Shown here: in pieces, positions 13,013-15,200 of the stretch
Numbering within the stretch: position 1 is the stretch's first letter
Layout: every line of letters begins with the position of its first letter
From: a virus
Lineage: Duplodnaviria > Heunggongvirae > Uroviricota > Caudoviricetes
DNA length: 24,898 nucleotides
Virus record (IMG/VR): IMGVR_UViG_2718218305_000013
Direction: 5' to 3' (one strand)
Made by a program: the position numbers and the translations under genes
The notes under the pieces: generated by a model
Told to the model about the DNA's origin: nothing
Seen by the model: the letters and a program-made list of their open reading frames with translations, nothing else
Databases searched by the model: none

Positions 13013-13058
13013 TGGTGCCGATAATAGGAGTCGAACCTACGACCTTCGCATTACGAAT
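13013..13058 (-). other. 46-nt 3' fragment of tRNA-Thr (anticodon CGU, thrW-like) ending in CCA: integration-site (att) repeat, not a complete tRNA
   Basis: Reverse complement reads ATTCGTAATGCGAAGGTCGTAGGTTCGACTCCTATTATCGGCACCA (anticodon loop through CCA); the 5' half (D arm, acceptor 5' strand) is absent. Confidence 0.8.
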
Positions 13059-13333
13059 TATAAGAATCCGCTTCTAATTCAAAGCATTACCCCATCAACA
13101 CTGCGCTCACACGTCCCACCACATCAAAACATGTAAAGCCTTGCAAGCCATTGCGAGGCCTTATGTGTCTCAGTTTTGTCCCACCTTGTATTACGACTTG
13201 CATAGCCAATGAAGATAAACGTGACGACAAACGGCGCAGCAGTCTTCTTTTCTTTCACGACTTCTCCAGCATGCATACCTTTCTGCCATGACTGAAGTGA
13301 ATGCCTGTTATGAGCAAGGATTGGCCCAGATGA

Positions 13334-13771
13334 ATCGCCCTGGACTGTTGCGATCGTGAAGCCATAGACTGGGCCGCAAGCACGGGAGGTTACGATAAAG
13401 CGACAGTGCAGGATGTCATGTTAGGAGCGATAGAAAAACGCTTTGGCGATAAAGTACCGGAACAGTCCATCCAGTGGCTGACAGATAACGGTTCAGCGTA
13501 TAGAGCGCATGAAACACGGCAGTTCGCCAGAGAGTTGAATCTGGAGCCCTGCACAACGGCAATCAGCAGTCCTCAGAGTAATGGAATTGCAGAAAGGTTC
13601 GTGAAAACGATGAAGGAAGACTACATCGCGTTCATGCCGAAACCGAATGTAAGAACGGCATTGCATAATCTTGCAGTGGCGATCGAACATTACAATGAAA
13701 ACCATCCGCACAGTGCGTTGGGTTATCGCTCTCCGCGAGAATATCGACGTCAGCGGGTAACGTTAACTTAA
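13334..13771 (+). pseudogene. IS2-like (IS3 family) transposase orfB remnant, 3' portion only
   Basis: Translation [38 protein letters not shown]...[12 protein letters not shown] resembles the C-terminal half of IS2 InsD; homology is lost upstream of about 13331 (in-frame stop); no intact IS ends seen. Confidence 0.65.
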
Positions 13772-13812
13772 GATACCCCCCCTGTCTGGAAATAAGGGGG
13801 CAAGAACAATGA

Positions 13813-14556
13813 TCAGATTCCCTGGTGAGTAAGAATTTTACTTTCTGAACTCCTCTGAGAGTATTGACTTGGAGAAACACCAAAATAACGTCTAAATACA
13901 TAAGTAAAGTATGAGACACTGGCATAACCACAGACCTTAGCTACTTTACTAATAGGATAACAACGAGTGCTGAGTAAATATTCAGCCATTTGCATCCTCT
14001 CATCAAGTATGATCTTACTGAATGATACCCCCTCTTCTTTCAATTTCCTCTTTAGTAAACTTTCGCTGAGATATAATCTTGATGATATATCCTTAAGACG
14101 CCATGGTGCAGATAAATCCGTATGAATAATCGTTTTAACTTTAGCCCCTGTGCTTTTCAAACATCCAAACAGAAATACTCCAAATTGTTTTTCAGAAGAA
14201 AATGCAGAGAGACATGTAAAAGCAATAGACTCATCAAAAATTTCTATGTATTCAGCACAGTGATTAGCCCAACTAATTAATCCTTTAATTAAACTGAAGT
14301 CAGCAAAGTTTATTTTTAAATAAGATGGATATTCCCTACAATCAGAAATATCCCTTAAGTTATTAGCTTTCAAATAGCGACTAATAAACTCAGCGCCAAA
14401 ATCCGCCACTATCACTCTTTCAGGATATGTCAGGAAAAAATCTCTAGAGCTAGAGTCGACAAGTACAGATGAACCTCTCTCCAGAAACACACTCTCTTTT
14501 CCGAAATAAACATCAAAGGACTCCAAAATCAATATAACTGAACATGTAGTTGCCAT
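13813..14556 (-). CDS. AraC/XylS-family transcriptional regulator (AppY-like), 247 aa
   Basis: C-terminal double HTH (ISKVAKVCGYASVSYFTYVFRRYFGVSPSQY); N-terminus CSVILILESFD resembles AppY; AT-rich; ATG verified at 14556. Confidence 0.8.
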   Translation of the reverse strand: MATTCSVILILESFDVYFGKESVFLERGSSVLVDSSSRDFFLTYPERVIVADFGAEFISRYLKANNLRDISDCREYPSYLKINFADFSLIKGLISWANHCAEYIEIFDESIAFTCLSAFSSEKQFGVFLFGCLKSTGAKVKTIIHTDLSAPWRLKDISSRLYLSESLLKRKLKEEGVSFSKIILDERMQMAEYLLSTRCYPISKVAKVCGYASVSYFTYVFRRYFGVSPSQYSQRSSESKILTHQGI

Positions 14557-15138
14557 ATCATCCCCCCAATTTAACTGAAACCAGGATGAAGTATATGTAT
14601 ATAAAGTTCACTTTGCCAAACTTCAGTATAAAAAACCACTAAAAATAGGGTGTGATAAAAAATACCGTAACAATAAAGCAAAGGATTATAAATTCCGTTA
14701 CAGTTACAAATGATACTCAAGAAACAATTCCTTAGGAAAAACTTATTTACAGCCAATAAGTAAGACACTTATATGATATCAAGTTTTCATAAAACATAAC
14801 TAGGCTAAATAGCTGCGCCTAATACCGCTACACTTTTGCCAGCCCATGTTTGCCTCCGGGTATTGACCCCTTCTCTACGCAACTTCAGTTCCCACCACCA
14901 ACTTTGCGGCAGCTTTGTAGGATCAATGTCTAAAAGAATAATGGTGACCGATAAGAAAACGACTGAATAACTGCAGATTTTCGCTCAAAACCTTCCTGTC
15001 AGATCCATAGCGAATCAAGTGCTGAATGTCACAGTATCGAACAGAAAACAGTGACGATCTAACCCTTCAAGAATATTCTACGATTGTTCTGTTTAGGAAA
15101 AGCAAGACGGGAAGTCGGGAGATAAGTCATTGATAAAG

Positions 15139-15200
15139 TGGCGGAGAGAGGGGGATTTGAACCCCCGGTAGAGTTGCCCCTACTCCGGTTTTCGAGACCG
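15139..15200 (-). other. 62-nt 3' fragment of tRNA-Ser (anticodon CGA, serU-like) ending in CCA: att repeat at the prophage end
   Basis: Reverse complement reads CGGTCTCGAAAACCGGAGTAGGGGCAACTCTACCGGGGGTTCAAATCCCCCTCTCTCCGCCA; upstream sequence does not supply the 5' acceptor strand or D arm. Confidence 0.75.

Follow-up and report, generated by a model that had tools for sequence, protein, structure and literature searches.

The window analysed here, a stretch of 24,898 nucleotides, is the thrW region of Escherichia coli O157:H7; by colinearity comparison it equals positions 300-326 kb of the Sakai chromosome, from which it differs by three SNPs and one additional IS629 and is otherwise the same. 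It carries two tandem prophages, the P4-like Sp2 followed by Sp1, which are annotated at thrW in Sakai and are the CP-933H/CP-933I pair (Sp1/Sp2) of the O-island 8 region. The features concerned are these, with strand in brackets:

127..143 (-): Sp2 att repeat at the distal end, made up of about 17 nt from the 3' end of thrW (TGGTGC-GATAATAGGA, one nucleotide deleted); adjoins the yagP-side chromosome; read directly.
11669..12901 (-): tyrosine integrase of the P4-like Sp2, with Pfam domains Arm-DNA-bind_3, Phage_int_M and Phage_integrase; sits just downstream of the thrW fragment and is annotated intS, ECs_0289.
13013..13058 (-): 3' 46 nt of thrW, the SfV/SfI-type att core, at the Sp2/Sp1 junction; its first 17-18 nt also serve as the Sp2 att repeat.
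13059..13320 (no strand): att arm on the phage side, belonging to the Sp1-type (e14/SfV-like) prophage; 95% identity to what follows the thrW fragment in the Cn5 prophage.
13333..13808 (+): IS2-like remnant of the IS3 family, reduced to the C-terminal half of orfB; annotated 'ISEc48 IS3 partial'.
13813..14556 (-): patE (Z0321/ECs_0287), an AraC/XylS regulator of 247 aa; Pfam HTH_AraC and HTH_18.
14557..14860 (-): AT-rich region upstream of patE (34% GC), with a promoter-like site at 14619-14590 (10/12 matches).
14806-14860: IS630-family scrap of about 55 bp, at the edge of the putatively captured serU flank; 92.9% match to DNA under an IS630 transposase gene (H70).
14861..15138 (-): 278 bp of chromosome from downstream of serU, the serU-yodB intergenic region to the yodB terminator, natively immediately 3' of serU.
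15139..15200 (-): 3' 62 nt of serU, from the 5' side of the anticodon stem through CCA; 62/62 identical to K-12 serU, tRNA-Ser(CGA).
15201..16153 (+): tail-side att arm of an e14/SfV-like phage and its last gene, at 15380-16153, encoding a LEM-3-like GIY-YIG protein (Pfam LEM-3_GIY-YIG).
23924..24898 (+): Sp1 integrase of thrW-specific type (Pfam Phage_integrase, E = 2e-47), convergent with the intact thrW just past the window end.

Sp1 is heavily deleted; its label in Sakai is 'lambda-like', whereas what remains of its tail side, like its intact relatives, is of the e14/SfV-like myophage kind. In Sakai it was neither circularised nor replicated (PMC2669165, Table 2). Its integrase (L001 25761-26735) is followed there by thrW (L001 26750-26825), and the window stops just short of that gene. 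At the other end of Sp1, the fragment at 13013-13058 agrees with the 3' part of thrW at 46/46 positions, the match starting in the anticodon loop, while BLAST against the intact Sakai thrW lengthens it to 47 nt (13012-13058); a 31-mer taken from the fragment occurs once in the window, with 0 occurrences expected by chance. It is identical to the 46-base att core ATTCGTAATGCGAAGGTCGTAGGTTCGACTCCTATTATCGGCACCA published for phages SfI, SfII, SfV and SfX (PMC3636060), and in the Sakai annotation Sp2 meets Sp1 at the position corresponding to 13029/13030. A second copy of the core lies within the intact thrW of Sakai, beside the tyrosine integrase, which is the arrangement of a prophage att repeat; the thrW 46-mer is an att repeat of the working type. 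The outer boundary of Sp2 in the Sakai annotation is the equivalent of position 143, and the chromosome flanking it is also seen in strain Cn5.

An earlier note, made from the letters alone, had reported 3' fragments of a threonine and a serine tRNA about 2.1 kb apart, and both are present, separated by 2,080 bp. Neither ARAGORN nor Rfam at its gathering threshold recognised an intact tRNA in the window, which fits their being fragments. At an E-value threshold, Rfam returned nothing on the Thr fragment and weak partial matches only on the Ser fragment (to a tRNA-Sec model at E = 0.011 and to an antisense plastid UTR model), and because these matches are absent or weak and partial, both tRNAs were identified by direct alignment. 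Sequence resembling serU occurs once in the window, and what the earlier note overlooked is that this fragment runs directly into the 278-bp flank. Of 5,426 E. coli genomes, 5,404 have a match to that flank at the native serU locus, and roughly 541 carry patE together with it; flank and serU 3' end together form 340 bp colinear with the native locus, including that of K-12. The Sakai record holds no feature for either the serU fragment or its flank, and a limited literature search found no description of a serU scar in Sp1/CP-933H. Repeats may mislead assemblers, a general caution, but to ascribe the arrangement to misassembly or to fortuitous resemblance is scarcely credible: a 2.5-kb segment is covered over 100% of its length in 322 complete genomes from many laboratories, and the two tRNA identities combined with the 278-bp flank have a chance expectation of zero.

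Both fragments had been taken for att repeats, and the islet between them for a composite integration hotspot. The former view holds for the Thr fragment, with its published core and its second copy at thrW, but not for the Ser fragment, which has no partner in the window. For a hotspot, a serU-specific element must once have integrated here, at a serU-like site within Sp1, leaving the Ser fragment as a local att repeat. The fragment does stop at the exact base where serU att cores end, and relatives sharing the Sp1 backbone have at this place a short sequence like the serU anticodon arm, which could mimic an attB. However, neither a second serU core nor a serU-type integrase lies within the window, the outer flank of the fragment is chromosome of the serU locus and not thrW-locus DNA, integration in place cannot join 278 bp of that chromosome to the fragment, and the same block travels as a phage cassette, in lambda-like phage genomes and in prophages at att-lambda. 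We consider a hotspot very improbable. The attachment site at the thrW locus is the Thr piece only. The Ser piece comes from serU, where a phage inserted long ago; it is the core of the distal junction between that prophage and the chromosome, preserved here as a fossil scar that is probably inert today.

Between the tRNA fragments, the IS2-like remnant noted earlier is borne out: translation of 13334-13771 gives the C-terminal 141 aa of an InsD-like transposase with rve/rve_3 domains, 70% identical to residues 148-288 of IS2 InsD. Measured against a complete IS2 (terminal inverted repeats, orfA, a frameshift site and full orfB), both orfA and the IS ends are missing, and the piece is a remnant, not a mobile IS. 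The adjacent gene is the only AraC gene in Sp1/CP-933H. Its description as an AT-rich AppY-like regulator is apt in a loose sense, given its AraC domains, a GC content of 35% against 44% for the window, and 28% identity to AppY over 236 aa (E = 2e-35). It was rightly called a prophage passenger; by location and annotation it is PatE, or Z0321 of AE005174, described as 'putative regulator (prophage CP-933H)' (PMC10877973, PMC2907692) and known as an activator of acid-resistance genes and a repressor of the LEE (PMC10877973, PMC2907692). A promoter scan found sites in numbers not above the chance or shuffled expectation, and it therefore assigned the serU flank no part in expressing patE. Expression of patE, which is RpoS-dependent, is likely the sole present-day function of the block.

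The segment at 13335-15201, a cassette of about 1.87 kb comprising the IS2 remnant, patE, the serU flank and the serU 62 nt, recurs at 98.8-99.3% identity in the deposited genomes of the lambda-like phages PhiR70_1, ev099 and mEp332, the viability of cassette-bearing phages being as stated in their records. In ev099 it lies between tfa and attP-int, and in a prophage at att-lambda it adjoins the lambda P arm. The junction of the IS630 scrap with the serU flank is present in 30 IMG/VR viral contigs, where the right-hand arms that begin at one and the same base are of two e14-like variants (15 and 6 contigs) and of a Rac/lambda type (8 contigs); in records of Klebsiella, Citrobacter and E. coli phages, the attP-type matches stop at the same serU base. 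The arrangement of the window itself also occurs in the non-O157 strain NJS001. A 24-mer spanning the junction is absent from a collection holding one genome per species. We considered whether the cassette ends are identical everywhere, as in a mobile unit, and rejected this for the left end: lambda-type copies extend further leftward in the IS2-like reading frame (RVTF|ALDCC), and the breakpoint at 13333/13335 is therefore specific to the Sp1-type arrangement. The slot that the cassette occupies is itself variable, since an intact e14-like thrW prophage in Cn5, with the same arm and backbone as Sp1, carries different cargo after its att arm. The cassette-free relatives Cn5 and A32 have a 13-24-nt vestige of the serU anticodon arm at the same spot, which may reflect either deletion from an Sp1-like state or recombination at short homology.

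Junctions of the same kind are also found in place. A chimeric query composed of yodB, the flank, the 62-nt core and the arm of the window is 100% covered at 98% identity in MB15 and RMDEC332, each with a prophage in serU; that is, the right-hand junction of the window is the in-place junction of complete e14-like prophages residing in serU of these two strains. For the Rac/lambda-type arm, the in-place homologue is the junction of prophage SerU-LTIIb, and the same 62-nt pseudo-tRNA terminates both this prophage and that of MB15. Proximal junctions (int, intact serU, mtfA) in the records show that serU is in active use as an att site, by Sp14 in Sakai among others. The idea that the right junction arose purely from microhomology with the 13-nt serU-like scrap of Cn5 was downgraded once the in-place e14-like serU prophages had been found. 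A second chimeric query, built to detect the cassette next to an empty serU and mtfA, was matched in 0 of 5,426 complete E. coli genomes, and no genome was found with the cassette still at the native serU locus, beside zinT/yodB.

The earlier note had also allowed for a rearrangement joining the ends of two islands, and in one respect this was correct, as the distal end of a serU prophage is indeed fused beside the thrW arm of Sp1. A version confined to the O157 lineage would have Sp14, at serU, recombine with Sp1, at thrW, and so bring the distal Sp14 junction to thrW; Sakai does have Sp14 in serU with a distal junction of core plus flank, and recombination among O157 prophages is on record (PMC2669165). 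Yet the cassette is only 97.0% identical to the Sakai serU flank at the Sp14 end, compared with 99.1% to the phage copies, and at seven diagnostic SNPs all cassette copies group with the native flank of LR-62-2, apart from those of K-12, Sakai, MB15 and E41. Moreover, the Sp14 arm (TATGCTATGG...) is unlike the arm in the window, the flank is limited to 278 bp, and the arrangement is shared with NJS001 and with phage genomes. Exchange between Sp14 and Sp1 is thus very improbable as well. Because the SNP pattern differs from that of O157's own serU flank, the cassette was imported, and the join appears to have been made in phages; the sequences point to a single capture followed by import into O157.

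Our preferred reading, to which we assign a probability of roughly 85%, is that the thrW att repeat was made here by Sp1 and the serU 62-mer was imported within a phage cargo block formed elsewhere. A temperate phage would have integrated into serU of another E. coli lineage, forming a distal junction ('attR'), and this junction with 278 bp of chromosome would have become fused to the IS630 scrap, patE and the IS2-like remnant, giving a cargo block of about 1.9 kb. The block occupies, in temperate phages, the variable slot between the tail-fibre end and attP-int, which is the lambda b-region, and would have spread by recombination among lambda-like and e14/SfV-like phages, its serU core and flank providing homology with any serU-resident prophage. 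Sp1, a degraded e14/SfV-like lambdoid myophage, would have entered the anticodon-loop region of thrW and duplicated its 3' 46 nt; an ancestor already bearing the block would have brought the serU scar to a distance of 2.1 kb from that att repeat. The P4-like Sp2 lies in tandem with Sp1 and uses the last ~17 nt of that thrW fragment. The identities, the colinearity, the common cassette, the in-place junctions and the SNP patterns are observed directly; the capture itself, whether by imprecise excision of the lambda-bio type or by recombination with a serU prophage aided by an IS, and the succession of steps we infer. The carriage of the Ser scar, its 278 bp of serU-side chromosome and patE as phage cargo is ordinary phage mosaicism.

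Several known systems resemble parts of this arrangement. In lambda-bio and lambda-gal transducing phages, imprecise excision captures DNA beside the att site. The block shares with these a hybrid att junction and colinear host DNA from the tail or b-region side, lying between where the tail-fibre genes end and the att-int module starts, and the marks of a captured junction are seen here, with a phage arm on one side, a tRNA core and host flank on the other, and a location in a phage slot. It differs from them in that the host DNA amounts to only 278 bp and ends at an IS630 scrap; cassette carriers also have a complete int-xis of different specificity, and a later exchange of modules must therefore be assumed. 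The serotype-converting Shigella flexneri phages SfV, SfI, SfII and SfX, which integrate at thrW, are like Sp1 in their att core, in an e14-related morphogenesis backbone and in carrying cargo immediately upstream of attP (PMC3636060), although the slot holds gtrABC in SfV-type phages and the patE cassette with its serU scar in Sp1. An AT-rich AraC/XylS gene at the tail-fibre end of a lambdoid prophage is familiar from the AraC-like regulators of E. coli prophages, namely AppY in DLP12 and PatE, PsrA and PsrB in O157; in DLP12, appY comes after tfaD/tfaX. At 28% identity, however, the regulator of the window is a distant relative of AppY and not the same gene renamed. Finally, the distal junctions of Sp14 of Sakai, SerU-LTIIb and the e14-like prophage of MB15 share with the window a serU core of 61-62 nt that leads into the native flank, but they stand in place beside yodB, whereas the copy in the window lies 2.4 Mb away at thrW with its flank cut at 278 bp.

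These observations leave the current view of phage biology unchanged, but they correct the reading of a much-studied O157 locus, in that a prophage may contain a tRNA fragment where no island ends; tools that call boundaries from such fragments would consequently mis-split Sp1. They also bear on the provenance of patE, which belongs to a small cassette common to lambda-like siphophages and e14/SfV-like myophages at several att sites, and which entered O157 from a lineage differing in its serU SNP pattern. The locus offers a clean natural example of att-adjacent host DNA fixed as phage cargo.

It is conceivable, though we think it unlikely, that the fossil serU junction can still be acted on by serU-specific integrases, for example the Sp14 enzyme (ECs_2773) in the same cell or those of serU-resident e14-like phages, in which case site-specific recombination would move the patE cassette between unrelated phages or rearrange the chromosome between thrW and serU. 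We do not favour this, because homologous exchange with serU prophages within the 340-bp unit gives the same pattern. Two details of the junction hint at such a role: three phage arms, unrelated to one another, all join the core at one identical base, and cassette-free backbones keep there a vestige of the serU anticodon arm that is the size of an attB.

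The entire window is colinear with 300-326 kb of the reference O157:H7 genome, Sakai (NC_002695.2, reverse strand), differing across its length by 3 mismatches and one additional IS629, and by nothing else. By megablast, 12850-15350 matches O157:H7 chromosomes at 100% identity, and at least 80% of it is present in one place in 322 complete genomes. Neither the locus nor its tandem prophages nor PatE is new, and the placement of Sp2 and Sp1 in tandem at thrW is already present in the Sakai annotation. ARAGORN found no tRNA gene in the window because the intact thrW gene, once the IS629 is counted, is placed just past its end. 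The prophages, their integrases and the insertion are arranged as follows:

143-13029 (equivalent), Sp2, P4-like prophage, 12,887 bp (Sakai annotation)
11669-12901, P4-type integrase of Sp2, just downstream of the Thr fragment (Pfam domains)
13030 to intact thrW, Sp1, 'lambda-like' prophage, 10,586 bp (Sakai annotation)
22193-23504, IS629/IS1203 copy in Sp1 (orfA 23126-23452, orfB 22239-23129), just after the ECs_0273 homologue and not in the Sakai reference
23924-24898, integrase of Sp1, convergent with intact thrW, as SfV-type and DLP12-type integrases are

The earlier note had flagged four elements at 13013-15200, two tRNA 3' fragments, an IS2-like remnant and an AppY-like regulator, and all are correctly identified and placed. 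It had also read both tRNA pieces as att repeats, and here the two fare differently. The Thr fragment (13013-13058, minus strand), which occurs once in the window, is the 3' 46 nt of thrW at 100% identity to the intact gene, and has the very sequence of the att core established experimentally for Shigella phages SfI, SfII, SfV and SfX (PMC3636060); it is indeed an att repeat, common to Sp1 and Sp2, and a classic example of the thrW att family. Because only ~17 nt from the 3' end of thrW recur at the far end of Sp2 (127-143), the part of the fragment that Sp2 uses is its terminal stretch.

The Ser fragment (15139-15200, minus strand), also found once, matches the last 62 nt of K-12 serU at 62/62 positions, in line with the earlier Ser assignment. 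As an att repeat of the thrW locus it did not hold up, its flank being native serU chromosome: of 5,426 complete E. coli genomes, 5,404 match the 278 bp on the fragment's left (14861-15138) at their native serU locus. Flank and fragment form a 340-bp block that is colinear with the K-12 serU-yodB intergenic region (97.1%) and ends just past the yodB terminator. Since the fragment starts in the anticodon stem and lies between phage DNA and the chromosome that natively follows serU, it has exactly the structure found at the distal junction of serU prophages. The SerU-LTIIb prophage has the order yodB, flank, 62-nt pseudo-tRNA-Ser and then tail-fibre genes; serU of Sakai itself is occupied by Sp14; and in MB15 and RMDEC332 the serU resident is a complete e14/SfV-like myophage, with a distal junction matching that of the window (a chimeric query of yodB, flank, core and window 15201-15500 was 100% covered there at 98% identity). 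Matches to the serU core stop at the identical base in Klebsiella, Citrobacter and E. coli phage records. The Ser fragment does not have the features of an att repeat made in place; it has those of a captured junction carried as cargo, and nothing suggests a role for this scar.

The junction belongs to a cassette (13335-15201) made up of the IS2-like remnant, patE, an IS630 scrap and the 340-bp unit. The remnant (13334-13771) retains the 141 C-terminal residues of a transposase resembling InsD of IS2 (70% identical, with rve domains). The AppY-like regulator (13813-14556, minus strand, GC 35%) is an AraC-type protein of 247 aa, with 28% identity to AppY along its whole length, and by location and annotation it is PatE (Z0321, CP-933H, O-island 8), which is reported to be RpoS-dependent, to activate gadB, gadC, gadE and hdeAB, and to repress several LEE genes (PMC10877973, PMC2907692). 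The region 35-60 bp upstream of patE has a promoter-like site, of a kind no more frequent here than in shuffled sequence.

Genomes deposited for the lambda-like phages PhiR70_1, ev099 and mEp332 hold the cassette at 98.8-99.3% identity. In ev099 it sits between a tail-fibre assembly gene and attP-int-xis, and in OkiPb01705 at the ybhB end of an att-lambda prophage, adjoining a recognisable lambda P arm. The scrap/flank junction is present in 30 IMG/VR viral contigs, with right-hand arms that are e14-like GTCCAATC (n=15), e14-like ACCCGATC (n=6), the type of the window itself, or Rac/lambda-type (n=8). In the lambda-type carriers the core is followed by DNA (ATGATACAGAG...) homologous to the arm found in place in SerU-LTIIb.

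Seven diagnostic SNPs emerge when nine copies of the 340-bp unit are aligned. Cassette copies (window, NJS001, OkiPb01705, ev099) all carry one pattern, which is also native at the empty serU of LR-62-2 (99.1%); K-12, MB15, E. coli 41 and Sakai's own Sp14 junction carry the other (97.0-97.4%). The O157 cassette, with a pattern unlike that of its own serU, was therefore not copied from the O157 serU locus; judged by these SNPs, the cassette copies have a single origin and the cassette was imported into O157. A chimeric query for the donor configuration, the cassette joined to empty serU, found it in none of 5,426 complete E. coli genomes, and the cassette junction was not found in species-representative genomes. 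The native serU flank of LR-62-2 (L017 2610-2831) lacks yodB, ~1 kb of K-12 sequence from zinT to the flank being replaced by ~220 bp.

The position of the cassette is a cargo slot, occupied in SfV-type phages by gtrABC (PMC3636060). In Cn5, where Sp2 is absent, thrW is occupied by an intact e14-like prophage that shares the 46-nt core and a 260-bp arm (95% against window 13012-13320), followed by 2.2 kb of unrelated cargo before homology resumes at 15183. The Sp2/Sp1 arrangement recurs in NJS001, where the e14-like prophage is full-length and the unit of IS2 remnant and patE (window 13327-14778) is tandemly duplicated (L013 6075-8747), the first patE copy being frameshifted. At the distal end of Sakai Sp14 (L016 2646-5202) the T3SS effector genes espJ and tccP lie in the equivalent slot beside the distal serU junction, following the same logic as patE in Sp1. 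The cassette-free e14-like prophages of Cn5 and A32 carry 13-24 nt resembling the serU anticodon arm beside the GIY-YIG arm: GGGTTTCGAGACCG|ACCCGATC in Cn5 (L005 11983-12000) and CGGTTTTTGAGACCGGTCCGATCA in A32 (L006 about 5985-6010), the latter matching serU at 22/24 across the core boundary. This vestige looks like a remnant of a former serU attP after a swap of the att/int module; at the cassette position it fits either deletion or a short-homology join.

From these observed structures we propose a history that, taken as a whole, we consider the most likely. A temperate phage would have integrated in serU in an LR-62-2-like lineage, and the distal junction with its 278-bp flank would have been captured into a phage genome, either by lambda-bio-type imprecise excision or by recombination helped by IS copies whose scraps persist. 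The captured DNA would then have been joined to patE and the block passed among temperate phages, its 340-bp serU unit offering homology to the distal junction of any serU-resident prophage. Finally, an e14/SfV-like phage carrying the block would have integrated at thrW and decayed into Sp1. The scar is unannotated in the Sakai record and a limited literature search found no description of it; it is one more case of known phage mosaicism, of practical value for calling island boundaries and for tracing the spread of patE.

A Lamassu anti-phage system, now decayed, lies in the cargo hotspot of Sp2 between delta/psu and int (8389-11665, minus strand); the Sakai annotation labels part of the system an AAA ATPase pseudogene. 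Its components (PADLOC, E-values 1e-21 to 1e-50) and two Rfam matches in Sp2, which are the P4-type RNA immunity region, are:

4902-4989, minus, C4 antisense RNA (84 bits)
5058-5135, minus, isrK (72 bits)
8389-8955, 8955-9545 and 9576-10235, minus, LmuB, broken into three ORFs
10201-10674, minus, LmuC
10659-11276 and 11249-11665, minus, LmuA, broken into two ORFs

Within the IS629/IS1203 copy of Sp1, Rfam places an ALIL frameshift pseudoknot at 23055-23171. Degraded as it is, Sp1 keeps an e14-like invertible host-range segment (16211-18234), in which a pin-type serine invertase (Resolvase and HTH_7) neighbours tail-fibre and tail-fibre-assembly genes of opposite orientation.
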